IMG/VR virus record: IMGVR_UViG_3300028805_000054
From: an uncultured virus (IMG/VR IMGVR_UViG_3300028805_000054)
Lineage: Duplodnaviria; Heunggongvirae; Uroviricota; Caudoviricetes
Direction: 5' to 3' (one strand)
Length of the DNA stretch: 64,000 bases
The position numbers and the translations under genes were made by a program. The notes beneath the pieces are model-generated. The model made no database searches. It was not told the origin of the DNA and saw only the letters and a program-made list of their open reading frames with translations. Positions 772-62,527 of this stretch are shown piece after piece; position 1 is the first letter of the stretch, and the number at the start of each line of letters is the position of its first letter.

Positions 772-3610
772 AATATTGGCAATAGCGGACATACATCTAC
801 ATGATTATCCGCAGCGTAATAGTTTTCAATTTCAACGATTATATCAAGGATCAAGAATTGTAGCTAAAAATATTATTGAAGTAGGGAAGAGGGAAGGAGC
901 GAATTACATAGCGATTTGTGGTGATCTGATAGAGAAATCGATAATCAGACCGTACGTTATGGCAGAAGCATACAATTTCCTTCATACCATCATGTCAGAG
1001 TTCAAAGAAGGTTGGATTATCTGGGGAAATCATGATATAGATGCTAAGTCGTCAGATCAAGTAATGACAGATTCTTGCTTAGCTTTATTCCTTCCTCCCA
1101 ATCTTAAGTATATGCATCAACAGCAGATAGAACTGGAGGGAAAGATTTTGGGTTTTAACAATTGGCAGCCCGACATAGATCTGAGTTGGGTAAAAGGTGA
1201 GTTAGATATGTTATTTACTCACGCTAGGATATGTTATCAGGAAGGTTCAGACTTATATCAATCACAGTACTTAGATGAATCAAAGTTTAAGATTGCATTC
1301 TGTGGTGATATACATAGACCAGGACAACTAGGAAAATATGTCAGCATTGGTATCCCTCAAAGATGTAAGATGTCGGATGGAGAAAAATCGACCGGCGTAT
1401 TGATAGATCTTGAAACGGGAGATTGGAAATGGGTAGACCTGAATCCTAAAGATAATCTAATGAAATTCCAGTATGTGACAGTTCCGGAGCAAGAAGGATG
1501 GAATGAAGCTTTTAAGACCTGGAATATCTATAAGCCAAGTACCGATAACATGATAGATCCCTCTGCAAACATAAAAGTATCGGGGTGGGAGAAAATTGAG
1601 TCTTTGGTAGATGATGCTATAAAAAAGGCGTCTCTAGTAGAAGTTCATCAGCAAGTTTTAGCCTCCATCCCAAACTTAGATGCAGGGGAAGTAGATTTCA
1701 ATTTCACCCCAGTCCGTTTCTATTGTAAGAATTGGAGAAGTATAGACGAAGTTGAAATGTTTTTTGAAGAGGGAGATAAAATCCTGATTGTTGGTGAAAA
1801 TGGATCTGGTAAGTCTAGTCTCCTATCTGCCATTAAATATGCGTTCTGTGATGTTCGTTCTACTTCTGGTCTTTCCTCACTAAAGCCATTCATTCAATTT
1901 GGTACTAAGGATTGTGTAACAGAAGTAGAGTTTATGTATCAGGGAAATCGTTGTAAGCTGAGACGTGGAACAAAAGAATATGGTCTCTGGATAAACGAGG
2001 AGCCTATGAAATATAATAGTAAGGCAGATTTTGAAGCTGATGCACGCCGTAGATTCCCATTCATTGAGTATATGGAGGTAATGATTCACGACCAAGACCA
2101 TAACCAATTTATAGGAAGTCTTACCGGCGAGAGATTAGCAGAAATAATCAGTAAAGCTTTTAAACTAGACCGCATTGATACCTATAATGATGCTGCTTCT
2201 CTTATGCTCACTCAATTGGTAAAAGGAGCTGCAGAGTGGGAATCAAAGATAGGGGAGTCAAAGAAGGTATTAGGATTTATAAACAGCAAACTAGAATCAA
2301 TTGTCTTACCTACCAAAACAAAAGAAGAGTTGACGAAGGAAAAGGATGTTATGGTTGAGCTGCAGAGGAAAAATCGAGAGTGGAATATCTTTGTGTCTAC
2401 TTCTTCACGTCTTCAAGCTGGTATAGAAAGTAGGGAAGGTGAGAAGACTGAATTGCTGGAGAAGAAACGAGCGCAAAGAGAACCGTCGATAATAGATGCG
2501 GAGATAGAGAACCTAAGAAAAGAGATTGGAGTAAAGCAGGAACGTCTTATTGAATTGGGCGGACTTAAGAATGCAATCAGGGTAAAGGAATCAGAATTAA
2601 CCCGCATAATCTCCGACGGTAAAAATCTGCGCTCGGAATTTACAGCAATAGATCCCACCAAGATTTCCTATTGTCCTACTTGTCGCCAGCAGATTATCCC
2701 CTCTCCAGAAACTATCGAAGCCTTAAAAACAAAGAAGGAAGAGATTGGAAAGAAGCTGGAGGAAAAGTTGGCTGAATATGGAAAGGTTAATCAGGAGTTA
2801 GAGCAGATGAAGAACGATTTTGGAAACTCAGACTCCGAAATTCAGGCTATCAACGGAGAGATAGGGGGATTGAATGGAGAGATTACAAAGAGGATGTCAG
2901 AAATACGAGTCGGGAAGGAAATTGAGGAGAGACTAGGGAGAGTAGAACGTGAGCTGACCGAATGGAAAACTAAATTAGCGAATCTTGGTGCTCCCGAAAA
3001 AGTTGAACTTCCTGATGATTTTATGGAGAAGATGTCAACAATAGAGTCTGGCTTATCATCATGGAACCTTTGGGAATCTGGGGTGAAAGACAAAGAGGAA
3101 CAAGAGAAGAAAGTTAAGGCCTATGAGAAAGAAGTGGAAGGTAATCGAGAACAACAGGATAAACTCAAGTCTTATATAAAACTGACAGGACCAACGGGAG
3201 TTATTTATGAGGAGGTAATGAAAAAACTAGTCTCCCAATTCAATGACAATACCGTATCCTATGAAGTTAATGTCAGAGAGTTTAGAAAGAAAGATCACCT
3301 CACTCTCGTACCACAATTCTTTAATAATGGAAATTGGGTATCTTATGAGGCTTGTAGTGGTGGTCAGAAAACGGTACTCGACATTCACTTCTTGAGCAAA
3401 ATTATAAATCGTGTTGGAATATTAATCTTGGATGAATTTTTGAAACACCTTGATCCTTCTAACCACGATCTCTGTCTCGATATGATTCAGAGTATGAGTA
3501 TTGGTTGTACCTTTGTCTCATCTCATATGGAATCTATCGCAGCATTCAATAATAAAACGTGTAGCTTGTCTCTTAATCAGTCAGGCCTCACGCAGATGAA
3601 ATTTAGTTAA
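764..3610 (+). CDS. Fused Mre11/SbcD nuclease - Rad50/SbcC ABC-ATPase
   Basis: N-terminal metallophosphoesterase motifs (ADIH, CGD, GNHD, THA, GDIH); Walker A GENGSGKS; coiled coil with zinc hook CPTC; signature CSGGQ; Walker B LILDE; H-loop SSH. Confidence 0.92.
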   Translation: MSKILAIADIHLHDYPQRNSFQFQRLYQGSRIVAKNIIEVGKREGANYIAICGDLIEKSIIRPYVMAEAYNFLHTIMSEFKEGWIIWGNHDIDAKSSDQVMTDSCLALFLPPNLKYMHQQQIELEGKILGFNNWQPDIDLSWVKGELDMLFTHARICYQEGSDLYQSQYLDESKFKIAFCGDIHRPGQLGKYVSIGIPQRCKMSDGEKSTGVLIDLETGDWKWVDLNPKDNLMKFQYVTVPEQEGWNEAFKTWNIYKPSTDNMIDPSANIKVSGWEKIESLVDDAIKKASLVEVHQQVLASIPNLDAGEVDFNFTPVRFYCKNWRSIDEVEMFFEEGDKILIVGENGSGKSSLLSAIKYAFCDVRSTSGLSSLKPFIQFGTKDCVTEVEFMYQGNRCKLRRGTKEYGLWINEEPMKYNSKADFEADARRRFPFIEYMEVMIHDQDHNQFIGSLTGERLAEIISKAFKLDRIDTYNDAASLMLTQLVKGAAEWESKIGESKKVLGFINSKLESIVLPTKTKEELTKEKDVMVELQRKNREWNIFVSTSSRLQAGIESREGEKTELLEKKRAQREPSIIDAEIENLRKEIGVKQERLIELGGLKNAIRVKESELTRIISDGKNLRSEFTAIDPTKISYCPTCRQQIIPSPETIEALKTKKEEIGKKLEEKLAEYGKVNQELEQMKNDFGNSDSEIQAINGEIGGLNGEITKRMSEIRVGKEIEERLGRVERELTEWKTKLANLGAPEKVELPDDFMEKMSTIESGLSSWNLWESGVKDKEEQEKKVKAYEKEVEGNREQQDKLKSYIKLTGPTGVIYEEVMKKLVSQFNDNTVSYEVNVREFRKKDHLTLVPQFFNNGNWVSYEACSGGQKTVLDIHFLSKIINRVGILILDEFLKHLDPSNHDLCLDMIQSMSIGCTFVSSHMESIAAFNNKTCSLSLNQSGLTQMKFS
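2452..2649. repeat. Ladder nested inverted-repeat element 1 (inside Rad50 coiled-coil CDS)
   Basis: attgctg 2452/cagcaat 2643; cgagcgca 2468/tgcgctcg 2628; accgtcg 2482/cgacggt 2614; atgcgg 2496/ccgcat 2602. Confidence 0.85.
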
Positions 3611-3611
3611 G

Positions 3612-5536: not shown

Positions 5537-5864
5537 TGTTTCCAGGTTTTATTAGTTCTTCGGCCATTTCCTCGATCCACTTCTCTGTTTCCTTTATGAT
5601 TTCCTCCAGTTCCACCTCTGTATGTAACATCGCTGGTCCTTTCCCATTAATCTGATCGTTGTTGAGCTCCTGATAAAACACCCTGATATCCCATTCAGTG
5701 CGATCAAAACAGTAAAGCTCAATAGGGACTCTCTTTTTCTTAGTCTCCGGATCTACACCATACGCATGAAGCTGCCAGTCACAATCTATAGCAGCGTCAA
5801 AATGAAGACCCCTGACCGTATATCTCAGATTTACAACACGAGTAGGGAATATATAATCAAACAT
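5508..5864 (-). CDS. hypothetical protein
   Basis: Operon ORF. Confidence 0.7.
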   Translation of the reverse strand: MFDYIFPTRVVNLRYTVRGLHFDAAIDCDWQLHAYGVDPETKKKRVPIELYCFDRTEWDIRVFYQELNNDQINGKGPAMLHTEVELEEIIKETEKWIEEMAEELIKPGNNEENIMPLF

Positions 5865-6285
5865 CTAAGGTCTTTAAGAATTTGTCCATCTCATTATAGA
5901 AAATAGTCTCATCATCTATCAGAGTTTGGCATGCTCTTTTTCCCCAACCAAATCTATCTTCCCTAAAATCTTCCAACCTAGCTTCTGATAGTTCTAGTTG
6001 ATTTTTGATACACTCTGAGAAAATGGAGAGCTCAGAATCTGTCACCTCCATATTAGTTCCTTCTTGGAGACGTTTTGCTAAAGAATTGAAATTTTTAATA
6101 TGATCAAGAGTTTCCTCCGCCATTTTTATTTTCTCATCTTTCTCTTTTCCATCCAATTCTTTTGCTTCCTCAATTAAATAGTTTACCTCCTTCATCTCAA
6201 AATCTCGGAAATTGTCCAGCTGATATCTAATCAAACTCTCCAATCTTTTCCAACCTTCTTCTTTTGGTATTTTAATTTGTTTCAT
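5857..6285 (-). CDS. hypothetical coiled-coil protein (start at MKQIKIP)
   Basis: Start lies just downstream of promoter motif 6311-6321; the longer track ORF runs through non-coding structure. Confidence 0.7.
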   Translation of the reverse strand: MKQIKIPKEEGWKRLESLIRYQLDNFRDFEMKEVNYLIEEAKELDGKEKDEKIKMAEETLDHIKNFNSLAKRLQEGTNMEVTDSELSIFSECIKNQLELSEARLEDFREDRFGWGKRACQTLIDDETIFYNEMDKFLKTLDV

Positions 6286-6310
6286 AAAGTAATATTTCAA
6301 ACTAGTATTA

Positions 6311-6321
6311 CGTATATAAGG
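6311..6321 (-). promoter_or_regulatory. Phage promoter-like motif CCTTATATACG
   Basis: Member of the recurrent CCTTATWNRTR motif at operon starts. Confidence 0.65.
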
Positions 6322-6322
6322 T

Positions 6323-6480
6323 TTTCCTGGTGTGGTTGGGTCGCGCAAGTATAAGAAACACACAAGATTTTTCACGGCTGTAATTATAAACTTGTGTAAA
6401 AATAAATACAGGAGAAAATTAACGGCCGTATTTTTAATCCTCCTGTAATTAAATTCTTGCGCAAAAAAAACACCAGGAAA
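6323..6480. repeat. Branched ladder element 2 (intergenic)
   Basis: tttcctggtgt/acaccaggaaa; gcgcaag/cttgcgc; arm acacaag-(acggctgt)-cttgtgt; arm tacaggag-(acggccgt)-ctcctgta. Confidence 0.9.
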
Positions 6481-6502
6481 TTTTAATCCCAGTGTTTTCG
6501 TT

Positions 6503-7213
6503 TTATTCTTCATATTCTTTAAGCTCTTCTATGACTTTTGGTAATTTCTCTTTATATTCGTTCTCTGGGTCAAGTCTTAACAGGTCTTCTATCAATATCT
6601 TCATTTTCTTTAAGTCACGATATCTTTGATCCTTAGGCTTAACGATTTTTGGTGGAGTTGGAGTATAAGCATTACATTTTTCCTCCACATTATCTTCCCA
6701 CTCAAATAAGAACCTCCACTCCTTCTTATCTTGACCAAACTTTATTGCATCCTTAAACATTTGCTCTTTTGTTAAGATTCTGTGATGGTCAAATAATTTA
6801 TGTTGAGGATTAGCCAATAAACAATGACCTATCTTACCACGATCAAGAGAGGTAATATCATCAATCAAAGCCTCGAAGGAATCAAAACCACAAACCTGAG
6901 CTCCGTGATCTGTATCAAAACCACAAGCCGGATACTCACCATGAATTAGCCTAACCGAATTCCATTTTTCCCTCTGGTTATCCTTATTCTCATTCAGTGC
7001 TCTCTCCAATTCTTCCCACGTTGTATCTCCTCTCTTAACCATTTTTCCTAAGAGCGGTTCATAATGGAGGAGACGTGAATATAAGTTGAGGTTAGATTCA
7101 AAACAGATATATAGCCTCTCTGCTCTTCTTCTACCATCATTAAAGCCATAGAAGCAAAGAACCTTATCCTTATCTTTCTTTAGGCTCTCTATCAATTTCT
7201 TCAGTTTTTCCAT
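6503..7213 (-). CDS. hypothetical protein
   Basis: 236-aa ORF in operon. Confidence 0.75.
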   Translation of the reverse strand: MEKLKKLIESLKKDKDKVLCFYGFNDGRRRAERLYICFESNLNLYSRLLHYEPLLGKMVKRGDTTWEELERALNENKDNQREKWNSVRLIHGEYPACGFDTDHGAQVCGFDSFEALIDDITSLDRGKIGHCLLANPQHKLFDHHRILTKEQMFKDAIKFGQDKKEWRFLFEWEDNVEEKCNAYTPTPPKIVKPKDQRYRDLKKMKILIEDLLRLDPENEYKEKLPKVIEELKEYEE

Positions 7214-8445: not shown

Positions 8446-8476
8446 CATATATAAGGATTTCAAAACCTTATTAATA
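8446..8476. promoter_or_regulatory. Back-to-back promoter motifs (8446-8456 minus; 8466-8476 plus)
   Basis: catatataagg and ccttattaata between divergent genes. Confidence 0.7.
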
Positions 8477-8824: not shown

Positions 8825-10018
8825 ATGATTATTAGAAGTAAATGTGAAAACGATGTTTACAAGTGGAACATGAGTTATCTTATGATGATGAAATTCCCTA
8901 ACATGAAAGTTCGGTTCAAGTTTAAAAATAGAAGACCGGGCGAAAAGTTTGATCAAAAGTTTATTGAGGACATGAAGTTAGAACTCGCAAAACTTAGAAT
9001 GTTGAAATTAAGTGACGCAGAGAAAGCTTTCATGAAAAAGAATTTCTGGTGGATTCCGGGATGGTACTTCGACTGGTATCAACATGCGGATATTTTTAGA
9101 CCAGAAGCAGTTAAAATGTGGCTGGATGAAAACTCAGAATTCCAATGTGAGGTGGAAGATCTTGGATATATTGTGACCTTCTGGGAAACAAACATACTTC
9201 CTATCTTTGCTGAACTTAGAAATAGGACCTACGGATATACTTATGATAAGATGAATGAATCCGAAGCCCTCGAGTTGGTAAGAGAGCAGATAAATCTCTC
9301 TAACGAGCATCAACTTAAGTTTTCTGAGTTTGGATTGAGAAGAAGATTCAGTGCAACCTGGCAAGATAAGGTGGATGATATTATTAAAGCTGAAGCTAAA
9401 TATTGTGTAGGTAATAGTAATGTTTATGAAGCTTATCGTTTAGGGCAGAAAATTAGCGGTACACAAGCTCATGAAATTTATATGGCCTATAATGCTATTT
9501 ATGGTTATCGTGAGGGTAATTATAAGTGCGTAAAGGATTGGATGGAAGTATTCAACGGACATGCTGGTATTCTTTTAGGAGATACTATTGGACTTGATTC
9601 TTTCCTGAAATGTCTTACTACTTTGTATGCTAAAGCTAGTTCTGGTTATCGTCATGATTCTGGACCTTGGGAAGAAGCTACAACAAAGTATATTAAACGA
9701 CTCAAGGAACTTTATGTCAATCCTCTTCACAAATCAATCATATATTCAAACAGCATTAATATGTGGGACCTTGATGATATTGGAAATAATGTGAGAGGTA
9801 GAGTCGGAGATTTTGCTGGTGGTATGGGTGGAGCATTTACAAATAATATTCCAAGCCTTAAGCTAGCGAATCCGAATATTGTAATGAAATCTGACATGGT
9901 TCAGCTTGATGCAAATTCCTTCCCAGCTAATACAGTGAAAGTACCTGATGAGCCGGGTAAAGAAATGGGGGATCCGAAAGAGGTTGAATACTGTAAATAT
10001 GTAACAGAGCGATTATGA
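8825..10018 (+). CDS. pncB: Nicotinate phosphoribosyltransferase
   Basis: DVYKWNM, EFGLRRRFS, GNSNV, GTQAHE (phospho-His motif), GYRHDSG. Confidence 0.88.
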   Translation: MIIRSKCENDVYKWNMSYLMMMKFPNMKVRFKFKNRRPGEKFDQKFIEDMKLELAKLRMLKLSDAEKAFMKKNFWWIPGWYFDWYQHADIFRPEAVKMWLDENSEFQCEVEDLGYIVTFWETNILPIFAELRNRTYGYTYDKMNESEALELVREQINLSNEHQLKFSEFGLRRRFSATWQDKVDDIIKAEAKYCVGNSNVYEAYRLGQKISGTQAHEIYMAYNAIYGYREGNYKCVKDWMEVFNGHAGILLGDTIGLDSFLKCLTTLYAKASSGYRHDSGPWEEATTKYIKRLKELYVNPLHKSIIYSNSINMWDLDDIGNNVRGRVGDFAGGMGGAFTNNIPSLKLANPNIVMKSDMVQLDANSFPANTVKVPDEPGKEMGDPKEVEYCKYVTERL

Positions 10019-10218
10019 TAATTCCAATTTTAATTACAACTTATTTAGTCTGTGGGGCTATTTTTGAAGTGCTTTCAGAGGATAGCCAGCCAAATGTTAT
10101 AAAAAATAGTAGGATACTAAGGTTAATCACAATAATAGTAGCATTCTTTTTGTGGCTTCCTTGGCTCATAATTAATATGTGTTTTCCAAAAAGAGATATT
10201 TGGTTTAAGAAGAAATGA
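10015..10218 (+). CDS. small membrane protein
   Basis: Two hydrophobic segments; ATGA overlap. Confidence 0.6.
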   Translation: MIIPILITTYLVCGAIFEVLSEDSQPNVIKNSRILRLITIIVAFFLWLPWLIINMCFPKRDIWFKKK

Positions 10219-10451: not shown

Positions 10452-10639
10452 TAGATAACTTAATTCTTGAAAATCTAAACAATAAATTTACAAGAGAATT
10501 GGCTAAAGGAGATCTGGTAGAAGCGGAAAAAGTTGTGAAAAGGTTGGAAGATCTATACCACCAACACACCAATGATTCCTTAGGCACTACGATCTACTTT
10601 ACGATAAGAGGTATGAAAACGTTGCTAAAGAACCAATGA
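10448..10639 (+). CDS. hypothetical protein
   Basis: ATGA overlaps. Confidence 0.6.
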   Translation: MIDNLILENLNNKFTRELAKGDLVEAEKVVKRLEDLYHQHTNDSLGTTIYFTIRGMKTLLKNQ

Positions 10640-53071: not shown

Positions 53072-53193
53072 AAATTAATGGGGAAAATGAAATTCCCTCT
53101 TTTATTTTACATTTTTTTTGTTCCTGATCCTTGAAAACTGACAGATCAAAATAACGAAATTATTTCGTAAAAAATTGGAAATAAAATTCCACA

Positions 53194-53481
53194 GTTGAGA
53201 GGCCGAAATAAAAGCTGTAACCCTAAAAGATTATGAAAGCTGAAACAAAAGCTATAGCTTAGTTTTATCATAAAGATAAAAATGTCTATGCTTTTTGCGT
53301 TACACAAAGCATTTTTCTGAGGTTAAGCCTCCCCGTAGCCACTACGCTATTCCGTAATTCATCGTGAACTCAGAATTACTACATTAACGCTTCGGACCCT
53401 TAACCTCTCAATTTCAATTACCCTACGCTCGTTCGTAAAGCTCACTAAGCTTCGGGATTAAAATTGAAAGATTCCCTATTT
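53194..53481. other. Conserved structured non-coding element, copy 2
   Basis: Homologous to 25950-26200 with the same outer stems and divergent inner stems. Confidence 0.8.
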
Positions 53482-53567
53482 CTTATTTTCTTATTTTAGA
53501 CCTCTATATTAGCTAATCGACATTCTCAAGTTTAAATTAAGAAAACTCCCCTCATAAAGGCTGAAAG

Positions 53568-53578
53568 CCTTATGAGTG
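53568..53578 (+). promoter_or_regulatory. Promoter-like motif CCTTATGAGTG
   Basis: Recurrent motif. Confidence 0.6.
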
Positions 53579-53747
53579 TAGATAATATCTGGTCCTCAAT
53601 TGTGATGACCTAGATCTCTACTCTTCAAAGAGAGAAGAAGATAAAGAGAACTAATACGTTTAAAATACGCTTTAGCGGATTTTGTGAGAGACTGTGTTCG
53701 AAGAACCAGGCTTTCATTTGTTTCAACATATAAAAATTATATTAACA

Positions 53748-55898
53748 ATGGAAAAACATAAAATTATAGTACCGAAAGGAATTAGGTATATAGGTGATTG
53801 GAAGGATTTTGATCTTGAGAATTATGAAGGTCCTTATATTATCAATAAAACTCTCACAGGATGTGGATTTACTGAACATTGTCTTACTAATGATAAAGAT
53901 ATAGTTCTGATATCCCCAAGGCGTTTCCTCTTAGAGAATAAGGAGGAACAACACCCAGGAGATGTCTACTATTTCAGAAATGATAATGAAGTATCCGTTG
54001 ATTTTGAGTTAGATATTGAGAAAGATGACGTTAAGGCTATTCAGGAGAAAGCCGAGGAAACAGAAGACTCAAAGAATAAGACCCTGGAAAATCTTGATCG
54101 GATAAAGAGGAATCTGGGGAATACTTATTTGACATTTAAACATGATAATCCAGATAAACCTTTTAAGATTCTTGTTACTTACGACTCTTTCAAGCATGTC
54201 AAGAATGTGCTTAAAGATCTTAAGAAGGAAGGTAGTGTCTCATACTTTGATACAGACAAGGACAGTATTGTAGAGGCTGAAACTGAATTTGATAATTTCT
54301 TCTGTGTGGTAGACGAATTTCAATCTATCTTCATTGATGCTAGATTCAAATCAGAGGCAGAAATAACGCTTCTCAAGGAGTTGGATGGATGTAAGAGATT
54401 ATGTTTTGTTTCAGCTACTCCAATGCTTGATAAATATCTGGAGATGCTTAAAGAATTTAAAGACTTACCATATTATGAATTAGACTGGAGTGCTGAGGAT
54501 CCAGGTCGAGTAGTAAAGCCAAAGATTGAGATTAAATTTACAAAGAGTCTTAATGAGGAGGCAAGAATGGTAGTTAATAGTTATAAGAATGGGAAGTATG
54601 ATGTGCGAATTGATCCTGACACTAAAGAAATTATAGAGTCTAGAGAAGCAGTCTTATTCTTTAACTCAGTGGCTGGTATTTGTCAAGTGATTAGAACTAA
54701 TAAACTTCACCTAGAGGATTGTAATATTATATGTGCAGATACTTCTAAGAATAAGGAGGCAGTTAAGAAAGCCTTAAATTCAGTTCTTAAGAAGGAGGCA
54801 GAAGAAAAAGGATTAACTCCAAAATATTTCACTAAGAATGATAAGGTGATTGGAAAAATTCCTGTGAAGGGAGAACCGCATAAGATGTTCACTTTCTGTA
54901 CTCGAACTGTATATCTAGGAGCTGATTTCTATTCAACAAACGCTAGATCTTTTATATTCTCAGATGCTAATATAGATTGTCTGAGCGTAGATATTAGTAT
55001 GGACTTAGAACAAATCCTAGGTAGACAGAGACTTTTAATCAACCCCTGGAAAGATTATGCTAAAGTATTTATTCGTACTCTTTCAAAGAAAAATACTAAA
55101 ACTGAAGGGGAATTTAAAAAGAGGCTAAACACTAAGATCAAGAAGACAGAAAATCTTTTAGCTTCATATACAGAAGTTGATCCGAGTAGAAGAAAAGATT
55201 TAGCAGAAAACTATCTTACTGTTGCTAAGATGTGTCACTATAGAAATGATTATGTATCAGTAAGAGTTGAAAAAGATTGGGAGACTAAAAAAATTATTTC
55301 AATGACTCCAGAATTCAATGAGCTGATGATGATTTCTGACATGAGAGCCTTTGAAGTCCAGCAGGTAGATTACAAAGATCGATTTACAGTATTCTCAGCA
55401 GTTAATCAAAGCGGAATAGAAGGTGCTACCATCAAGTCATGTGAGCTAGTAGAAGAATTCAATCATTACGGAGATACTACATCAAGACTTAAGATGCTAG
55501 TTCAGATTAGTGAAGATAAGAGTCTGACTAGTAGTGACATTGGTGCCTTCTTAGAAATGATACCACCAAAATATAAAGATTATTACCTAATAGTTGGACC
55601 AGATATTATTAGGGCTTGCGGTTGTTTTGAATGTGAAGTTAAGAAAAGATGGAGAAAAGAAGTTGAGGGTGATGACTATAACGAACAAGTTATTTCCAGG
55701 ATGGGAGATATGTTCAGGATTGGTCATAAGTATTCAAAATCTGGCATAAAAGAATCACTGAAAAAATTATATCAGGAGTTAGATTACAAGAAGACAGCTA
55801 AAGCCACTGATCTAGAAGTTATATATGTTACGAAAGCCATCAAACTACAGGAAGATGGTAAATGGGTAAATGGCTTTGAGATATTAGGTAAACGATAA
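53748..55898 (+). CDS. SF2 helicase-like protein, paralog B (716 aa from MEKHKII)
   Basis: Colinear with, and the same length as, 26447..28597; same motifs. Confidence 0.78.
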   Translation: MEKHKIIVPKGIRYIGDWKDFDLENYEGPYIINKTLTGCGFTEHCLTNDKDIVLISPRRFLLENKEEQHPGDVYYFRNDNEVSVDFELDIEKDDVKAIQEKAEETEDSKNKTLENLDRIKRNLGNTYLTFKHDNPDKPFKILVTYDSFKHVKNVLKDLKKEGSVSYFDTDKDSIVEAETEFDNFFCVVDEFQSIFIDARFKSEAEITLLKELDGCKRLCFVSATPMLDKYLEMLKEFKDLPYYELDWSAEDPGRVVKPKIEIKFTKSLNEEARMVVNSYKNGKYDVRIDPDTKEIIESREAVLFFNSVAGICQVIRTNKLHLEDCNIICADTSKNKEAVKKALNSVLKKEAEEKGLTPKYFTKNDKVIGKIPVKGEPHKMFTFCTRTVYLGADFYSTNARSFIFSDANIDCLSVDISMDLEQILGRQRLLINPWKDYAKVFIRTLSKKNTKTEGEFKKRLNTKIKKTENLLASYTEVDPSRRKDLAENYLTVAKMCHYRNDYVSVRVEKDWETKKIISMTPEFNELMMISDMRAFEVQQVDYKDRFTVFSAVNQSGIEGATIKSCELVEEFNHYGDTTSRLKMLVQISEDKSLTSSDIGAFLEMIPPKYKDYYLIVGPDIIRACGCFECEVKKRWRKEVEGDDYNEQVISRMGDMFRIGHKYSKSGIKESLKKLYQELDYKKTAKATDLEVIYVTKAIKLQEDGKWVNGFEILGKR

Positions 55899-55913
55899 AC
55901 ACCTTATATATAT

Positions 55914-56087
55914 ATGAAGAAAAAGAAAGTGATGAACGTTAAGACCTTGGCAGAAAAGGTACGGCGTGAAAACGAGTTAAAGGATTATGGGAGGATCTTA
56001 AGTCTTCGTCCTTCCATAGTTCACACTGATAAGACAAAATACAACCGGAAGACTAAACATCGTAATCAAGAGGAGGATGAAGCATGA
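55914..56087 (+). CDS. Small basic protein (57 aa, not in ORF track), ArfA-like tail
   Basis: MKKKKV...SLRPSIVHTDKTKYNRKTKHR; promoter motif 55902-55912; ATGA overlap with the next gene. Confidence 0.65.
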   Translation: MKKKKVMNVKTLAEKVRRENELKDYGRILSLRPSIVHTDKTKYNRKTKHRNQEEDEA

Positions 56088-56734
56088 ACCTAGGACAGAA
56101 GATTGACCTGGATAATAACGACAGGAATAGGAAGATTTGGTTTATGTCTGATCTTCACTACAACCACAGGAATATACTTTGGATTAACCAGTCGACAAGA
56201 GGAGATAGGTTTAAGGATTTGGAAGAGATGAACCAATATATCCTGAGTGAGTTAAGGGCGAAAGTTAAGGAGGGGGATATTCTATTTGACCTTGGAGACC
56301 TGATATGGAAAGAAGGACCACCCGAGATTAAATTATTCAGCGAGGTTCTTCCCGTTAGATCTCACCGTGTATTAGGCAACCACGATGGAAGAAATCTAGA
56401 AGCATGGGGAAAATGTTGGTGTAGTATTTCTGATCTCCTTGACTTGATTGTGAAATACCAGGGAGAGGATATTCGGATTACTCTTTCCCATTACCCCTTA
56501 CTAGACTGGAATCATAGATATCGTGGGTCTTGGAATATACACGGTCATTGTCACGGGAATCTCGACTTGCTGAATAATGAGAGCGGAGAGTTAAGGATGG
56601 ATATAGGTTTTGATTCTGAGATTGCTTCGCGTGTTGGTTCTTTCCTGATACCTTTCGAGAGTATATTGGTTGAGATGAAGAAGCGAACAGGTGGGAAAGG
56701 ATTTAGAGACTGGGCAAAAGAAAGGTTTAATTGA
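56084..56734 (+). CDS. Calcineurin-like metallophosphoesterase
   Basis: SDLHYNH, LGD, GNHD, SHYP, HGHCH. Confidence 0.9.
   Translation: MNLGQKIDLDNNDRNRKIWFMSDLHYNHRNILWINQSTRGDRFKDLEEMNQYILSELRAKVKEGDILFDLGDLIWKEGPPEIKLFSEVLPVRSHRVLGNHDGRNLEAWGKCWCSISDLLDLIVKYQGEDIRITLSHYPLLDWNHRYRGSWNIHGHCHGNLDLLNNESGELRMDIGFDSEIASRVGSFLIPFESILVEMKKRTGGKGFRDWAKERFN
56332..56578. repeat. Ladder element 14 (inside CDS)
   Basis: attattcagc/gctgaataat; ttcccgt/acgggaa; accgtgtat/atacacggt; ccacgat/atcgtgg; tctag/ctaga. Confidence 0.9.
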
Positions 56735-56906
56735 CTATGATAGGTTTCATTAAATTTGGATTGGCGAAAAGTGGAGCATTATTTCCTATCTGTGAAGTTC
56801 TCCTCTTGATAGATCTTCTAATTCTTATTCTGCGCTTAGGAAATGTGTGGACTTGGATTTATAGGATATAATATTTTGTTGGTGATTGAATATTTAAAGC
56901 AAAGTT

Positions 56907-57263
56907 ATGGAGAAAGAAGAGTATAAAAAGTTGAAGGTTGGGGATATTGTTTACCTATTCAAACTTGATATCTCCAGGAATGCTTATCGTGTTAATTTTG
57001 GAGTAGCAGCCGAACTTAAGATGATAGGAAAAGATGAATTTGAAGTCACTAAGCTCATCAATGGCAAACACTTCAAGATTGGCGAAACAGTAAAAATAGA
57101 TGACCTAAGCTGGAGAAGTAAATTCAGATCTCTTAATCTCTGGAAAAAGTTGGAGGATGGTGTAGCGTCTTGGAATGCAGTTATCATAAATGCAGAAGAC
57201 CTGTTAACCTCTACTTACGAAACTAGAAAGAAAGGACTAATAAAACGATTAATTCAGGTATGA
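56907..57263 (+). CDS. hypothetical protein, tandem paralog 1
   Basis: KEEY..LK.GD...SWN..I....LTSTYE. Confidence 0.7.
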   Translation: MEKEEYKKLKVGDIVYLFKLDISRNAYRVNFGVAAELKMIGKDEFEVTKLINGKHFKIGETVKIDDLSWRSKFRSLNLWKKLEDGVASWNAVIINAEDLLTSTYETRKKGLIKRLIQV

Positions 57264-57613
57264 CAAAAGAAGAATATAATGGATTGAAACCTGGAGATCA
57301 TGTTTGGGTTTCTAAGGTATCTTTCAGTGACCGTGGAACAATGACCTTAGGATTATTTGCGGAACTTGAGAAAGAGAAGGGAGGAGGCTTTTTGGTAGTG
57401 AAGGTAGAGAAAGGAACGACACTGAAAGAAGGTAGATCTGTTTGTGCTACTTATTGGAGTTCTCCTTTTGGATATTCAGACCTACACAAAACCAGGAAAG
57501 ATGCTCTGGAGTCTTGGAACCGGAATATCTATAACACTATCGATCGCTTAACTTCTACCTACGAACAGACAATAAAGCGAATTAGGAAGAAGATAATTAG
57601 TGATGAAGTCTAA
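57260..57613 (+). CDS. hypothetical protein, tandem paralog 2
   Basis: Same motifs. Confidence 0.7.
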   Translation: MTKEEYNGLKPGDHVWVSKVSFSDRGTMTLGLFAELEKEKGGGFLVVKVEKGTTLKEGRSVCATYWSSPFGYSDLHKTRKDALESWNRNIYNTIDRLTSTYEQTIKRIRKKIISDEV

Positions 57614-57637
57614 TGTTATTTTAGAGGAGGAAGTGAC

Positions 57638-58177
57638 ATGATATTATGGTTGAAATTTATATGTCCGATTCTTATTCTGATTGCCTTATGGTTTTGGAAT
57701 CATCGGAAAAGGTACCAGAAATTAGTAATGGAAAAGATGGTAGTCCCGCATTATGAGTTTGGGATGTTAGATGAGGGAACCAAAGAGAAGATTTCTGTAC
57801 TCCCTGGCATTGGAACTGTGTTAGAAGGACTGGGGAATACGGTCAAAGTTTATCAGGTTGTCGAAGATGAAAAGGTTATTGCTGCTATCTTATTCTCCTG
57901 GCCTTCCTCTTTATGGCGTTTCAGGGAGGAGCGTGGAGAAACTGAAACTTTAGGCTCTTACTCTCATATATATTGGGTAGAAGTCTTAGAGTTACATCGA
58001 GGAAAGGGTCACTTAAGTCGGCTCCTGGATATGGTAATTTCAGACACTCACCGGATATCTGAAGGTATTACTATTGACATTGAGGACCCGGAGATTAAAG
58101 GACTATTTAGACGGAAGTTCGAATTTAAGGATATGGGAAATAATAAATTGGTATTGAGTTATGACAATTGGAGTTGA
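57638..58177 (+). CDS. GNAT-like protein with N-terminal TM
   Basis: VEVLELHRGKGH motif A. Confidence 0.6.
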   Translation: MILWLKFICPILILIALWFWNHRKRYQKLVMEKMVVPHYEFGMLDEGTKEKISVLPGIGTVLEGLGNTVKVYQVVEDEKVIAAILFSWPSSLWRFREERGETETLGSYSHIYWVEVLELHRGKGHLSRLLDMVISDTHRISEGITIDIEDPEIKGLFRRKFEFKDMGNNKLVLSYDNWS

Positions 58178-58622
58178 TTTTGATAATACGATAGTTATAG
58201 ATGAGTGGCCAGAAATAGGAGCCCTCATTCCCGGAGCCATAGAAACATTGAAAGAATTACAGGCGAGGGGTCATCGGATAATTCTTTACACACAGCGGAC
58301 GGATGACTATTATTGTTATTGTCCGGAGTTGATAGAGTATGGGAAGAAACACGGGAAGAGTTTTAAAGATACGGTGAATTTATTGGAACCCGCTGTGAAA
58401 CTCTTATCCGATAATGGAATCTCGCCTGATGCTATCAATTCAAATCCTTGGTGGGAAGCGGAGTGTCAGGATTATGGAAGGAAAGTTTATTTTGATGTCC
58501 TGATAGATGACCATAACGCAGGGATAACCAGGAAGACCGTTAAGAACAGTAAAGGAGAGTGGTGTGAAGTTGTAGATTGGGATGCTCTCCGGGAATGGTT
58601 AAAGAAAGAGGGAATATTATGA
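58161..58622 (+). CDS. HAD-superfamily hydrolase
   Basis: IGVDFDNTIV, ILYT.R, RKV..D.LIDD. Confidence 0.85.
   Translation: MTIGVDFDNTIVIDEWPEIGALIPGAIETLKELQARGHRIILYTQRTDDYYCYCPELIEYGKKHGKSFKDTVNLLEPAVKLLSDNGISPDAINSNPWWEAECQDYGRKVYFDVLIDDHNAGITRKTVKNSKGEWCEVVDWDALREWLKKEGIL
58260..58428. repeat. Ladder element 15 (inside CDS)
   Basis: caggcgag/ctcgcctg; atcggataa/ttatccgat; cacagcgg/ccgctgtg. Confidence 0.85.
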
Positions 58623-58840
58623 GCATCTGGAAAACGCTAAGACAAGAGAAGCCTAAAGATTATCACAACTTATTTATTCTCACTAGATCTAATAAGGTAA
58701 TAAGAGGATTTTATTGCTCAGAAAATAAAAAATTTTATTACAGAGACGGTTGGGTTAAGCCAGTCGTATATAAGAGGTGGTGTTATGAAGAAGATCTTGT
58801 GGCTAACATCTTGGAAGAAATTAAAAAGGATAAGCATTAA
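58619..58840 (+). CDS. hypothetical protein
   Basis: ATGA overlap; WCY.EDL motif. Confidence 0.6.
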   Translation: MSIWKTLRQEKPKDYHNLFILTRSNKVIRGFYCSENKKFYYRDGWVKPVVYKRWCYEEDLVANILEEIKKDKH

Positions 58841-59127
58841 AACTTATCCTTCTTTTTCTTTTCTCTTCCTAATGGTCCGAGAGGTTGCCATCCGACTATT
58901 TTATCTCTTCCTTCAAACTCATTATCACCTTTCATTTCCCACAACATACTACAGAGATCATCATTCCACAATCTACAGATGGGATTACTATTGAATGGAC
59001 ATTTTTCACAACGAGTATTATCGGAAGGGATTAAGGTAAAAGATATTCGGCCTCTTTTGTTTGTCCACCTCATAGAAGCCTTTAATCTACCTCCACTCTC
59101 CCACCATATATCAACTTGTCTGGCCAT
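58837..59127 (-). CDS. hypothetical protein with Cys cluster
   Basis: CEKCPF...C...C. Confidence 0.55.
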   Translation of the reverse strand: MARQVDIWWESGGRLKASMRWTNKRGRISFTLIPSDNTRCEKCPFNSNPICRLWNDDLCSMLWEMKGDNEFEGRDKIVGWQPLGPLGREKKKKDKF

Positions 59128-59789
59128 AATTCTTTCAGTTCTTCCAGAGACCACCAACATTCAGGATCCTCGGCTTCTTGGAGATGTTTATTATAAGTTT
59201 CCTCGTCTATCCCATCATATGTAATATCCTTAGTCTCATAGTCTTCTCTCACTTTGGTCACTTTTCCATCTTTCACTTTCCATTCAGCATAAACCCAAAG
59301 AGGATCACCCTGTTCAACGAGATATGTAGTAAAGTCAAGGAAAGGCCAAGTTTCTGCTACCTTCTTCAGATCTTCTTCCAGCTCATCTTCATCAACTCCA
59401 TATTTACCTCCCCATAATAGACCACCAACATCTCCTTCTGGGCTAATCCATCCATGAGGTCCGTTCACAGAGCAACAAGATATCCAATGGTTTAATAGGT
59501 GATGAAGACCAAGACATCCCCATTCTTTTGTTTTCCATTCATCATAAACTCGAATCTTATCTAGTATGCCATCTCCTTCTAACATATACCCATAGTCAAG
59601 GTCGCAGCAGGAATGATCTCTTTCGATAGCTTCAAAATCTGCTCTAACTCCTGATAACTTGTAGAGAAGACGATTAAATTTATGATTATTTCCATTCCAC
59701 ATTTTCTCATAAAATGCATCGGTTCTTCTTATAATCTCGATCGCATCTTCCTTACTAACCTTCTTTCCACTAACCACTATATATTCCAT
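59082..59789 (-). CDS. conserved hypothetical phage protein
   Basis: EIIRRTD; NHWISC...GPHGW. Confidence 0.75.
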   Translation of the reverse strand: MEYIVVSGKKVSKEDAIEIIRRTDAFYEKMWNGNNHKFNRLLYKLSGVRADFEAIERDHSCCDLDYGYMLEGDGILDKIRVYDEWKTKEWGCLGLHHLLNHWISCCSVNGPHGWISPEGDVGGLLWGGKYGVDEDELEEDLKKVAETWPFLDFTTYLVEQGDPLWVYAEWKVKDGKVTKVREDYETKDITYDGIDEETYNKHLQEAEDPECWWSLEELKELWPDKLIYGGRVEVD

Positions 59790-60061
59790 TCTTCAAACCA
59801 ATCATAAAAAATAGTGGGATCAAAATTTAAGATTCTTTTATTCCAATAGTCTTTTAGTAAGATTTGTCCGGTACATATCTTTCTACCATCTCTTGTTTCA
59901 ATCCACATACCATACAAAAGGGAATCAATCTCTCTAACCTCTAATTTTCCAAGATTGTCCAAAAATGCTGAAATTTCTTTAGAGCTTAAATCATATCCAA
60001 ATTCTAAAGCTTCATAGCACTTCTTTCTTCGTTTATTAGATCCTTTTCTTCCTACCAGCAT
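59777..60061 (-). CDS. hypothetical protein
   Basis: Operon ORF. Confidence 0.6.
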   Translation of the reverse strand: MLVGRKGSNKRRKKCYEALEFGYDLSSKEISAFLDNLGKLEVREIDSLLYGMWIETRDGRKICTGQILLKDYWNKRILNFDPTIFYDWFEEWNI

Positions 60062-60290
60062 CCTTAAATTTTCTAGGTGGGATAATCATGTCAACCAGCA
60101 ATTCTTTATCTGGCTTTTGGTACTTATTTTTCGGATTTTCTTTCTTCAATGTTGTTCTCATGAATAATCTCTTTAAGTTGACTTTCTTTCTCCCCTTAAC
60201 TGTTGCAAAAGAATAAAACAAAGGACTCACCCGAAATGCAAAACTCCTTATTCCGTTCTCCCCTAAGTACTCATATATTTTTACCTTCAC
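60036..60290 (-). CDS. basic hypothetical protein, tandem paralog 1
   Basis: VKG.K.V.L.RL..RT....NP..KY..PD. Confidence 0.65.
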   Translation of the reverse strand: MKVKIYEYLGENGIRSFAFRVSPLFYSFATVKGRKKVNLKRLFMRTTLKKENPKNKYQKPDKELLVDMIIPPRKFKDAGRKKRI

Positions 60291-60320
60291 ATTAATAAGG
60301 AAAATAAAGGAGCAAGAAAT

Positions 60321-60572
60321 TTAATTCTGCTTCATAATTCTTTTGAAAATTTTATCTTGAATATAAAACTTCTTAACTTCATCTGGATTTGAGTATTTAA
60401 TTCTAGGATTAACTCTAGAGAAATGAGTTCTAAGGATGAGTCGACTTAATTTTACTCTCTTATTACCCTTCACATTAATCTCAGATCCAAAAACCTTCAT
60501 GATAAAAAATCTATATTGCCTATAGTGTCTATAATCTTTTCTTCTGTAAATCCAAACTATTACTTTCACCAT
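60321..60572 (-). CDS. basic hypothetical protein, tandem paralog 2
   Basis: Same motif. Confidence 0.65.
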   Translation of the reverse strand: MVKVIVWIYRRKDYRHYRQYRFFIMKVFGSEINVKGNKRVKLSRLILRTHFSRVNPRIKYSNPDEVKKFYIQDKIFKRIMKQN

Positions 60573-60921
60573 TCAAGATTTTTATCATATCTGTATAGCC
60601 ATATTCACCCGGACCTAACACAGAATAACCAAGCTTTTCATACCAGCCTATCAGATCTTTATTCCAGGACTCAACGCATAAACAAATTTCTTCCTCCCCA
60701 ATTTCATCCTGCACTATTCTCTCTGCTTCCTTCACTAATTCCGTTCCTATTCCACGGTTTCGGTTTTCAGGAAGGACAGATAAACCAGACAATACAACAC
60801 CTTCCTCCAAATCTTGACTCACTTTGATTATTCCACTTCCGTCATCACACACTATCACCCAAGTTTTACCCCAGATCCATTCATTCCGATGTACTATAAA
60901 ACGTCTTTCATTTTTTCCCAT
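60529..60921 (-). CDS. GNAT acetyltransferase
   Basis: LSVLPENRNRGIGTELV; WYEKLGY. Confidence 0.85.
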   Translation of the reverse strand: MGKNERRFIVHRNEWIWGKTWVIVCDDGSGIIKVSQDLEEGVVLSGLSVLPENRNRGIGTELVKEAERIVQDEIGEEEICLCVESWNKDLIGWYEKLGYSVLGPGEYGYTDMIKILNGESNSLDLQKKRL

Positions 60922-61304
60922 AATGTCTTCGGATTTTTGCCTTTATTTGGTTTTCTCTTTGGCTTGACACTTAAAGGTCCATCCCCTGCAACCATTTTTA
61001 TTTCAGAACCAATGTGGAGGGAATTGTAGTGATCTTTTATTTTCCAATCTCTGAAGCCTTTATAATCTCTAAATCTTTCTTCGGGAGGTAGGTGGATTGG
61101 TTTTTCTCCGGAGTATAAGTGTTGTTCATCGCCAAAGTAATCGTTCACACATATCAGCCATAATCCTGTTTCCTCTTCAGCTTCCACTATCTCAATCCTA
61201 ACCGTTCCTTCTTCCGGTTTTAGGTCGATGCAATTAGGAATCCACATCTCATAGCCCATAGGAGTGTCTGGAGGGTAACCATATTTTCCATTCTCTTTCT
61301 TCAC
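60894..61304 (-). CDS. hypothetical protein
   Basis: Operon ORF. Confidence 0.6.
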   Translation of the reverse strand: MKKENGKYGYPPDTPMGYEMWIPNCIDLKPEEGTVRIEIVEAEEETGLWLICVNDYFGDEQHLYSGEKPIHLPPEERFRDYKGFRDWKIKDHYNSLHIGSEIKMVAGDGPLSVKPKRKPNKGKNPKTLWEKMKDVL

Positions 61305-61391
61305 CGGTTTTAAAGGCTGATAATAAAATATCTCCAGAAGGGTCGCCAGTATTAGTAACCCATAATTTATCTTTGGCTATTCCCATAACTT

Positions 61392-61811
61392 TCAGTGTTT
61401 ACGTTTCTCCAGTTCATCCTTCATAAAATTTGTAATGCCAATCTTAATATTATCTTGCTCATCGCTCCATTTTTCTAGCTCTTCCCAATATTCTAGAGTT
61501 GGGTCATCACATTCTAACATCCAAAGGTCGAAATAATGTTGAATCACTTTAATAGGGTATGATTTTCCTGCAGATGTTCTTTCTTGTAACATAACCATCT
61601 CACCTTTCGGAAGATTGGACCTAAGATACTCAACATCAATAGAGCATTCAATTTCTAAGTCAGGATCAAACCGAATTTCCCACCATCCTATATTCTGACT
61701 ATCCTCTAAGCCAGTAATAGGATAAAATTCATTTCCTATCTTTACAATTACCTTAGCACTATTTTCTTCACTCTCCAACTTCCTTAATATATCGTCACTC
61801 CAAATTATCAT
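61392..61811 (-). CDS. hypothetical protein
   Basis: Operon ORF. Confidence 0.65.
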   Translation of the reverse strand: MIIWSDDILRKLESEENSAKVIVKIGNEFYPITGLEDSQNIGWWEIRFDPDLEIECSIDVEYLRSNLPKGEMVMLQERTSAGKSYPIKVIQHYFDLWMLECDDPTLEYWEELEKWSDEQDNIKIGITNFMKDELEKRKH

Positions 61812-62527
61812 CTCTTTATAACCACTTCGAAAAGATGTCCATAAATACTATAAACTCGTAACCTAACCCCGGCCGGAAATCCACACTTCTTTATATACCG
61901 CTTGAATTTCCTCCGCGTGATTGGTCCCTTTATCGTTTCCGTATTAGTATTCCATTCCCGACACTCTAACCAATGATGCCACTTTCCCGTTTCTTCACTA
62001 TACATCCAGTCAGTATCCTCAACCTGAACATTCAACCTTAAGTTTCTTTGTCTAATACGCGGAAAAGAACCAAGCGGAAGAATCTTGAAGTGTGAGGAAG
62101 CGGCCGGTCTAACATAACTATCAAATTCTGAGTTTCTCGCTTTAATTTCTTCATAATCACTATATTGTTGTTTGAGTCTCCTCTGTATGAAATCGATTGG
62201 ACAATACCTGATCAACCATACATCAAAGTAAGTAGGCGTATTCCATAAGACCAGCTCACCTTTTCCGTTCGGGTCTGGTTCCCAATCTTCTCCGAGTGCA
62301 TCTTTGGCTTCTTGTACATGCTTAGGATCTTTATAATAATTCCGATATCTCTCCTTCTGTGCTTCAATTCTCTCCTTAAATTCGGCTTCTTCATATTCTG
62401 CCACCCAATCAATCGGAGCAAAGACATTACCAAAATCATCCGTTACCGTCCCTACACTTTTGGCCCAATCATACGCTGCCTTGTAATCTTCCCAACAAGT
62501 TACATAAGTCTTATCTATTCCTGCCAT
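61808..62527 (-). CDS. hypothetical phage protein
   Basis: MAGIDKTY...LWNTP..FD.WLIR.CP. Confidence 0.75.
   Translation of the reverse strand: MAGIDKTYVTCWEDYKAAYDWAKSVGTVTDDFGNVFAPIDWVAEYEEAEFKERIEAQKERYRNYYKDPKHVQEAKDALGEDWEPDPNGKGELVLWNTPTYFDVWLIRYCPIDFIQRRLKQQYSDYEEIKARNSEFDSYVRPAASSHFKILPLGSFPRIRQRNLRLNVQVEDTDWMYSEETGKWHHWLECREWNTNTETIKGPITRRKFKRYIKKCGFPAGVRLRVYSIYGHLFEVVIKR
61869..62107. repeat. Ladder element 16 (inside CDS)
   Basis: ccggccg/cggccgg; cacacttc/gaagtgtg; ccgcttg/caagcgg; tccgcgt/acgcgga. Confidence 0.88.

Follow-up and report, generated by a model that had tools for sequence, protein, structure and literature searches.

Ladders of nested inverted repeats in a 64-kb stretch of an uncultured rumen phage: candidate shape-coded elements of one lineage

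Can a double-stranded DNA phage carry a dispersed family of elements that have a fold in common rather than a sequence? This question was raised by a 64,000-nucleotide stretch (hereafter the window), part of the genome of an uncultured member of the Caudoviricetes (IMG/VR record IMGVR_UViG_3300028805_000054), in which a first-pass annotation had pointed to 16 loci of nested, essentially perfect stems, stacked like the rungs of a ladder. All gene-family negatives given below cover these 64 kb.

Correctly nested perfect inverted repeats were found at all 16 loci, at or within about 30 nucleotides (nt) of the starts first assigned to them; for the loci at 30646 and 41957, extra outer rungs were detected at 30632 and 41928, respectively. 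Stems of 6-10 base pairs (bp) at intervals of about 13-17 nt, with unpaired loops between them, had been described; measured rungs were 6-11 bp long (mostly 7-8), with starts 13-18 nt apart, spans of 85-281 nt and unpaired internal loops of mostly 4-10 x 5-10 nt. The loci formed two sub-populations. Eight ladders lay wholly within an open reading frame (ORF), starting at 2452, 32331, 34103, 37016, 46982, 56332, 58260 and 61869, and seven of these had an apical region of 90-185 nt without further rung. The other eight were composite intergenic modules.

Ladders and chance expectation

An origin by chance or composition was ruled out by dinucleotide, GC-filtered and synonymous-codon shuffles, the first and last of these kinds of control having been set beforehand. 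A rule-based scan (perfect inverted repeats of at least 7 bp, span of at most 320, gaps of 2-25 nt, asymmetry of at most 6) returned five ladders of depth 4 and five of depth 3, where the means of 40 local dinucleotide shuffles were 0.025 and 0.425, in total 0.45 expected against 10 observed. When rungs had to have at least 42% GC and ladders a depth of at least 2, 14 loci were recovered against 1.1 +/- 1.0 in 30 shuffles. Thirteen of them belonged to the original list and one was new, a weak two-rung candidate at 19672-19755 (CCAATGGA, CAGGATG) inside ORF 18004-20091 on the minus strand. Loci 12248, 24600 and 41957 fell outside this set: the first two consist of outer rungs enclosing separate inner hairpins, and the third, with its outer rung at 41928, was still among the ten ladders of depth 3 or more. 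Within genes, 40 synonymous-codon shuffles, which preserve both proteins and codon usage, yielded 0.12 intra-ORF ladders (maximum 1) against eight observed. The ladders are non-random.

GC-rich perfect repeats outnumbered those of shuffles where they spanned 100-300 nt (78 to 36.0 and 60 to 37.6), but not where they spanned less than 100 or more than 300 nt; no deeper longer-range ladders appeared relative to shuffles with spans up to 3 kb. The stems were GC- and CpG-rich, as had been claimed for an otherwise AT-rich genome: CpG-containing inverted repeats spanning 100-200 nt numbered 39 against 17.4, the genomic observed/expected ratio of CpG being 0.60. Among rung words ACGG/CCGT was enriched (11 against 1.4), as were other CpG words, and this ACGG/CCGT bias was the sole sequence feature common to the intragenic ladders. 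In RNA folding all 16 loci beat their shuffles, with sense z scores from -2.1 to -7.9, and DNA-parameter folding of the two loci tested gave z scores of -3.15 (56332) and -1.93 (24600).

Conservation and turnover of the pairing

Two ladders could be followed through sets of orthologues, namely the four-rung ladder at 61869-62107 in ORF 61808-62527 on the minus strand (g61808) and the four-rung ladder at 56332-56578 in the metallophosphoesterase gene 56084-56734 on the plus strand (g56084). In g61808, 7 of 31 pairs had changed on both sides, a result reached by none of 500 column shuffles, and 90% of cells paired as against 40-53% with the partners slid; rungs 1-3 persisted, by way of compensatory changes, in orthologues with as little as 47.5% protein identity (relative L076). 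In g56084, pairing reached 92.6% across seven sequences against 28-47% when slid, and the ladder, whose rungs overlap the GNHD and GHxH motifs, was conserved in relatives L067-L071. For both orthologue sets the consensus fold given by RNAalifold was the ladder itself. Compensatory change in orthologous loci, which had been proposed as a check, was thus observed in both genes.

Codons for invariant amino acids provided a second line of evidence. In the clade with ladders they were nucleotide-identical in 14 of 18 rung codons and in 25 of 90 elsewhere (p=0.0001), and in the ladder-less clade in 2 of 13 and 15 of 53 (p=0.49); rung codons were frozen across six sequences with 66-91% protein identity. 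The earlier suggestion that the signal is read as a fold and not as a sequence word gained support from pairing that survives sequence change and from rung codons that are frozen where ladders occur but not in the ladder-less clade. Judged by these comparisons, the pairing is under selection. The intragenic ladders showed no insertion relative to homologues: the phosphoesterase, with metagenome relatives at 47-91% identity, showed no inserted segment when 28 proteins were aligned, and its rungs fell on invariant catalytic residues.

Close relatives were also rich in ladders. Four were found in 11.9 kb of L070 (shuffle mean 0.07) and five in 20.6 kb of L071 (0.30), and these included orthologues of the ladders at 56332, 61869 and 32331. 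The extra ladders of L071 were a five-rung one at 18209-18482 (ORF 17327-18625) and one bounded by CGGCCG at 19295-19501 (ORF 19036-20247); at 9445-9642 of L070, two adjoining intergenic ladder hairpins were seen, one with a GCCGAAGGC tip. Farther away in the family, G001, whose complete record of 400,901 bp has terminal repeats, and G002, a 254-kb record, both with SbcCD proteins 49% identical to that of the window, lacked such an enrichment: they had three ladders against 2.0 expected, none of depth 3, and one against 0.7, respectively. A set of 127 unrelated loci contained a mean of 1.7 ladders per 64 kb, mostly in extreme-GC sequence.

Single ladders came and went even among close relatives. 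The four-rung ladder at 37016-37162, in a PvuRts1I-like gene on the minus strand (36829-37425, g36829), was lineage-specific: it was missing from the orthologues in L071 (81% amino-acid identity) and L082, with z scores of -5.47 in the window against +1.37 and +0.51. The window copy showed synonymous and amino-acid changes in both arms, mostly towards G/C, and its differences from L071 were no more frequent in rungs (17 of 56) than elsewhere (137 of 493; p=0.75). In ORF 58161-58622 on the plus strand (g58161), substitutions were concentrated in the rungs (p=0.003) of its three-rung ladder at 58260-58428, which was conserved in L068 with one compensatory change, decayed in L070 and absent from L071, L074 and L075. 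The pairing, then, is selected, and yet individual ladders turn over. Their distribution is best explained by a recent invention in one sub-clade of a family of rumen phages of roughly 250-400 kb, and gain and loss between genes in close relatives would fit a need of the genome rather than of any particular gene. Ladder-rich and ladder-free relatives with a common promoter motif represent a natural experiment which could help to find a protein that reads the fold.

Apparent compensation can also be thought of as a mutational by-product, in which short template switches or homogenisation of the arms write and re-copy inverted patches that have no function. Template switching is argued, in passages of three reports, to be able to create and maintain perfect hairpins (PMC8794818, PMC8604942, PMC5453318). 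In line with it, only perfect Watson-Crick rungs occur, ladders appear and vanish among close relatives and, in some rungs, several adjacent bases differ together. However, independent switches would share neither one symmetry axis nor a rung period of 13-18 nt, and extension of rungs should give contiguous palindromes, yet loops remained unpaired even in non-coding modules (7 of 55 positions were Watson-Crick in eight equal-length loops, by hand count). The frozen rung codons, and the g36829 copy in which both arms had changed without concentration of differences in rungs, also argue against this explanation, which we consider improbable. Template switching may help rungs to arise, but it leaves the common axis, the periodic unpaired loops and the frozen rung codons unexplained.

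The remaining intragenic ladders were found in genes of several kinds. An SbcCD-like enzyme had been predicted in this DNA and is indeed encoded, as an SbcD-SbcC fusion gene (764-3610, plus strand), which itself contains the ladder at 2452-2649 (rungs ATTGCTG, CGAGCGCA, ACCGTCG and ATGCGG, an apical region of 100 nt, sense RNA z of -4.21). The ladder at 32331-32611, in ORF 32143-32751 on the minus strand, has rungs CCTGCTC, CTTCCAG, AGACTGG and ACGGCCG, of which the inner two were identical in the L071 orthologue. At 34103-34301, within a nucleoside 2-deoxyribosyltransferase-like gene (33947-34516, minus strand), the rungs are CCCGCAT, CCACCAAT and CCCGAATT; in L071 the outer rung was conserved, and the second was conserved with one compensatory change. 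Finally, rungs CGCGCG, AACGGAG, TGCACCTT and ACGGCGTG make up the ladder at 46982-47227 in ORF 46856-47341 on the plus strand, a weak T5orf172 match.

Intergenic modules and the molecule that folds

The claim that copies share almost no primary sequence went too far for the intergenic modules. The arrangement ACACAA-N12-32-TTGTGT was present in five copies against 0.10 expected, and in only 3 of 182 other loci; four hairpins had AT-rich loops of 20-25 nt centred on the palindrome ACGGCCGT, and CGAAG-type mini-hairpin tips were seen in three modules. Modules 12248 and 13317 have both ends in common and are paralogous; their outer rungs differ by the exchange of an A-T for a G-C pair, which also speaks for selected pairing. 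With an overall column identity of 45%, the intergenic modules are, by their shared stems and loop motifs, a diverged repeat family.

Such recurrent words might suggest ordinary binding sites on duplex DNA, the inverted repeats being half-sites for dimeric proteins: ACGGCCGT and ACACAA/TTGTGT recur in modules that adjoin promoters and could be operators. This is very improbable for the ladders as a whole, since the rungs have another sequence at each locus but keep their complementarity through compensatory changes, the spacing from ACACAA to TTGTGT varies from 15 to 29 nt, and half of the ladders are intragenic.

The position of the modules relative to transcription signals is of particular concern here. 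The motif CTTATAHDYG (usually cCTTATATATG) occurred 15 times in the window against 2.3 expected, 8 of the 15 lying 7-42 nt upstream of an ORF start (examples are 8446-8455, 20431-20440, 24585-24594, 24725-24734 and 62849-62858), and strict copies numbered 19 and 28 in the 400-kb and 254-kb relatives G001 and G002. It is probably a phage promoter, and we take it to resemble the Bacteroidota TAnnTTTG element. Modules 20178 and 24600 lie between outward-facing copies of it, while modules 13317, 12248, 15518 and 30632 directly follow predicted terminators made of a hairpin and a T run. Ladders are not themselves intrinsic terminators: none precedes a T run, and the terminator-like sites (13505-13481, 12541-12517, 15808-15771 and 30764-30740) are separate short hairpins adjoining the modules.

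At 6323-6480, rungs of 11 bp and 7 bp surround two hairpins, ACACAAG..CTTGTGT and TACAGGAG..CTCCTGTA, the latter with the ACGGCCGT loop (z of -6.91), and a minus-strand promoter motif, CTTATATACG, lies 2 nt past the module. The ORF called at 5857-6513 (minus strand) runs into this module and the start of the one called at 12953-13303 (minus strand; GTG at 13303) falls in a promoter motif; the true starts of both are probably further downstream. The module at 12248-12464, between convergent genes, has a 9-bp outer rung TTCCACCGT..ACGGTGGAA around two multi-rung hairpins, one with the ACGGCCGT loop (z of -5.24), and is directly preceded by the predicted minus-strand terminator 12541-12517. The module at 13317-13471 (z of -3.87) has two hairpins, whose loops contain the palindromes ACGGCCGT and GCGTACGC, within rungs CCGCCGT and CTTCCGT; it exactly spans the gap between predicted terminator 13505-13481 with its T run and the promoter motif at 13312-13303. 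The minus-strand terminators 13505-13481 and 12541-12517 are near-identical (AAGAGTGRC..GTTRCTCTT and a T run), and their position directly before a ladder module suggests that terminator and module were duplicated as one cassette. Also between convergent genes, the module at 15518-15756 has an outer 9-bp rung ACCGCGCGA followed by ACAGAGC (z of -5.03); inside these lie the hairpins CCAGCAT/CTCGCTT and AGGCGG/AAGTCGGA, of which the second has the ACGGCCGT loop; the predicted minus-strand terminator 15808-15771 precedes it.

The module at 20178-20411, between divergent genes and outward promoter motifs, is made of rungs CTGTGGG and ACAGAGGGA around an inner ACACAAG..CTTGTGT hairpin whose tip is a GCGAAGC mini-hairpin (z of -7.87). 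The gap between the divergent promoter motifs at 24594-24585 (minus strand) and 24725-24734 (plus strand) is filled by the module at 24600-24717, with outer rung CACGCCGG, an inner ACACAATT..AATTGTGT hairpin that ends in a GCGAAGC tip; it is the weakest of the 16 (RNA z of -2.66, DNA z of -1.93). Between two minus-strand genes, a four-rung hairpin at 30632-30744 (CTCGTCT, GTTGGGGA, ATGCAAGA and ACACAAG, with a 15-nt tip and a z of -4.79) has its first arm overlapped by the predicted terminator 30764-30740, and the next gene starts at 30631. The last module, at 41928-42091, covers the 3' end of a small ORF (41696-41989) upstream of gene 42102, and has rungs CCGATTTT, ACACTAT and CTCGCGTG (z of -5.53); its inner hairpin ACACGAC..GTCGTGT bears a CCTTCGGG tip, which is CGAAG on the minus strand.

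Most intergenic modules are thus placed in predicted untranscribed spacers, in gaps from terminator to promoter or between divergent promoters, and a role at the DNA level is favoured for this reason. Only perfect Watson-Crick rungs were enriched (4+1+4 stems with G.U, 6 against 3.5 +/- 1.6, or with A.C, 4 against 4.2, were not), and both strands folded about equally, the sense z being better in five of eight; these properties fit DNA, or else a thermodynamic threshold. The account which we tentatively prefer, at rather less than even confidence, is that the ladders are selected, shape-coded cis elements which act on single-stranded DNA (ssDNA) as a landmark; that DNA is the acting molecule, and that the fold has a reader, we infer. 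Two arms, each about 55 nt long and 90-190 nt from the other, would pair through three or four short GC-rich rungs, the loops between them staying unpaired, and the fold would form only on a single strand. Either strand could fold into the ladder once the two are separated, as they are at a replication fork or in a recombination intermediate; for the compact intergenic modules, this separation may perhaps come from negative supercoiling between divergent promoters. A protein would then recognise shape and not sequence. It could be a factor for priming, fork restart or the initiation of recombination, like those at plasmid sso/ssi sites, or it could be the SbcCD-type nuclease of the phage. Rungs of 7-8 bp would keep each duplex too short for the behaviour of a long palindrome or for a nuclease substrate, and a helix interrupted in this way could be accommodated in a reading frame; in long operons without spacers it could then be placed inside a gene.

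A different possibility is that the ladders fold in the transcript. Intragenic ladders would staple 100-300 nt of a long polycistronic mRNA that lacks Shine-Dalgarno sites, as a barrier to exonucleases, Rho or R-loops, being opened rung by rung by ribosomes and too interrupted for RNase III, and intergenic modules would be structures of the 3' untranslated region or of read-through. Long-range closing helices are known in mRNAs, as in the end-pairing of hok mRNA, the RNAalifold consensus was the ladder in both orthologue sets, and one strand of the module at 41928 can be read as having a cUUCGg-type tip. All eight intragenic ladders are confined to a single ORF, although with about 0.76 expected for each and about 0.11 for all eight jointly this is not significant. 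Conversely, at least five intergenic modules have a predicted terminator before them or divergent promoters on either side, the window shows no enrichment of rungs with G.U, sense and antisense z scores do not differ consistently, and translation would keep opening intragenic structures. We regard RNA clamps of this kind as somewhat less likely than the ssDNA landmark.

Several observations weigh against the ssDNA landmark. Among tolerated one-sided changes read on the sense strand, G.U outnumbered A.C by 9 to 3 (about p=0.07, binomial) against a background of 44 to 41, and by 15 to 9 at rung flanks; this lean is suggestive but not significant, and it speaks weakly for mRNA or for just the sense strand of the DNA. 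Taken together, the terminator scans gave fewer sites than their shuffles (7 against 12.2, 7 against 12.9 and 8 against 13.1), so that the notion of untranscribed spacers rests on individual predicted sites and on the presumed promoter motif. Since tips of 90-185 nt cannot extrude as cruciforms, intragenic ladders must use ssDNA of forks or recombination, and such a use is a proposal. The covariation alignments are small (four and seven sequences), and their sequences are related. Even spacing along the genome was significant for the original 16 loci (coefficient of variation 0.55, P=0.02) but not for the rule-based list (0.75, P=0.29), and because of the latter value it was dropped as evidence.

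In its widest form, which is conceivable but which we hold more loosely still, the proposal is that of a new, purely shape-coded cis element: a stem ladder that can be written into any sequence, catalytic motifs included, by coordinated synonymous and amino-acid changes. Such ladders would be recent genome-wide landmarks in one sub-clade of huge rumen phages, serving a single-strand process (priming, fork restart, recombination initiation or transcript protection) and read by a shape-recognising protein. If they are functional landmarks, a double-stranded DNA phage can lay over its protein-coding sequence a further code, made of structure only, and can rebuild it quickly in new genes. This would bear on how replication, recombination or RNA metabolism is organised in uncultured huge phages, and on the de novo origin of multi-stem structures. 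It would also concern genome annotation, since neither repeat finders nor motif searches pick up elements of this kind.

Genomic setting and comparison with known systems

The window is dense and phage-like, with 36% GC and about 120 ORFs in alternating strand blocks. Scans of 53 proteins against Pfam and of 99 against PHROGs identified the SbcD-SbcC fusion (764-3610), NAPRTase, NMNAT-like, Nudix, formyltransferase, RRXRR-HNH (IscB-like), metallophosphoesterase (56084-56734) and Hsp20 genes. Positions 26000-34000 had no match by megablast against the phage collection, and a single-protein scan of viral contigs returned no relative of the SbcCD fusion protein; the stretch 53000-62900 was present in sheep-gut DNA runs and in metatranscriptome runs. 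Most ORF starts are preceded by AT-rich sequence without Shine-Dalgarno site, the coding strand is purine-rich, and GC and AT skew track gene orientation; the gene starts and the purine-rich coding strand point to a Bacteroidota-type host. A set of NAD-salvage type (NAPRTase, Nudix hydrolase and a cytidylyltransferase-like gene of NMNAT type) occupies 8825-12066 and 24948-25517, and, together with a formyltransferase (29723-30631), the nucleoside 2-deoxyribosyltransferase-like gene and the weak PvuRts1I-like match, it hints at nucleotide or DNA-modification metabolism.

An IscB-like ORF with RRXRR and HNH domains (34504-35799, minus strand; Pfam RRXRR, 6.6e-55) is preceded on the same strand by a HEARO match of the omega-RNA type at 35841-36140 (92.3 bits against a gathering threshold of 83, E value 1.7e-17), and by its sequence the pair (34504-36140) is an OMEGA-type RNA-guided nuclease module within a huge phage. 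Two plus-strand paralogues 27 kb apart, 26447-28597 and 53694-55898 (716 and 734 amino acids, 78% identical), had no Pfam or PHROGs match, but their DEFQ and SAT motifs look like those of a superfamily 2 helicase. Summed contig depth in DNA runs was 68 and 63 over the partly intergenic stretches 53296-53959 and 62592-63900, against about 15-20 in neighbouring bins (3-4 times higher), and these stretches are probably repeated or common to several strains.

Are the ladders, then, a known element? The HEARO match, which is not a ladder, was the sole hit above gathering threshold when the 64 kb were scanned with Rfam, and no tRNA or known RNA family was found at the ladders. Integron attC sites are similar in that structure prevails over sequence, with nested 7-8-bp boxes, an unpaired central spacer and a variable tip, and they act as folded ssDNA. 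They differ by a conserved R-box core, two boxes, a position at cassette ends and a need for IntI, whereas the ladders, of comparable geometry (7-8-bp rungs and unpaired spacers of 6-9 nt), have three or four rungs without a common core. The attC core boxes R'' and R' read RYYYAAC and GTTRRRY; by inspection, the core is absent from all rungs listed for the 16 loci. The outer rungs are different at every locus, and eight ladders, half of the total, lie mid-ORF, in the middle of conserved enzymes; on these features the ladders do not qualify as attC sites.

Sites of DNA inversion or recombination in a broader sense, with nested repeats as ends of invertible segments (intragenic invertons or shufflon-like systems) or as folded attC-like sites, are very improbable. 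Spans of 100-300 bp do resemble invertons of gut Bacteroidota, the gene starts without Shine-Dalgarno sites suggest a host of that type, and a 7-bp box, unpaired spacer and 7-bp box recall a folded attC. Nevertheless, 23 of 30 rung-pair inversions introduce stop codons, by which recoding invertons were rejected, and four of eight ladders have no open option; rungs of 7-8 bp that have no sequence in common offer a recombinase no recognition site, the Pfam and PHROGs scans of 53 and 99 window proteins returned neither an integrase nor an invertase family, and no strand-changing joint coincided with a ladder among the joints listed, which were all but 36, for contigs on 44000-63900.

The sso/ssi sites of the G4, phiX174 and M13 types are likewise imperfect hairpins of 70-300 nt with internal loops, have low sequence conservation between types, and are read as folds in ssDNA coated with the single-strand binding protein SSB. 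They are, however, strand-specific sites outside coding sequence and number only one or a few in each replicon, whereas the ladders occur about 16 times in 64 kb with symmetric arms and regular rungs; as 8 of 16 ladders are coding and both strands fold comparably, a non-coding, strand-specific site of this sort was rejected.

Dispersed intergenic hairpins have been described as REP/BIME sequences and, in T4-like phages, as the promoter-terminator cassettes PeSL (PMC2839356, PMC4122927). From the portions of these reports consulted, the intergenic modules are like PeSL in being diverged repeats between terminators and promoters, but those elements are single simple hairpins with a clear consensus and the modules are multi-rung folds of 110-240 nt with varying outer rungs; the intragenic ladders have no counterpart there. 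Hairpin-forming DNA inside protein-coding genes is known from Rickettsia palindromic elements and intragenic REPs (PMC3733652, likewise in part). In the Rickettsia case an inserted repeat adds a peptide loop, whereas the ladders are written into existing codons, including catalytic motifs, and an insertion-type palindromic element was rejected because the phosphoesterase had no insertion over 28 proteins. At the level of listings and the openings of abstracts, the literature searched did not describe periodic ladders of nested repeats inside phage genes.

Likeness to the ladders is also seen in the end-pairing of hok mRNA and in the genome structures of RNA viruses, where distant segments, coding ones among them, pair with support from covariation. 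Closing helices of mRNAs, however, are single and gene-specific, or belong to diffuse structure, and do not form a family of periodic 7-8-bp rungs spread over a genome; to our knowledge, long-range closing helices of this sort are not known from double-stranded DNA phages. Compared with all these systems, none of which fits, the ladders are real, statistically strong and unusual, and they are maintained yet lineage-specific.

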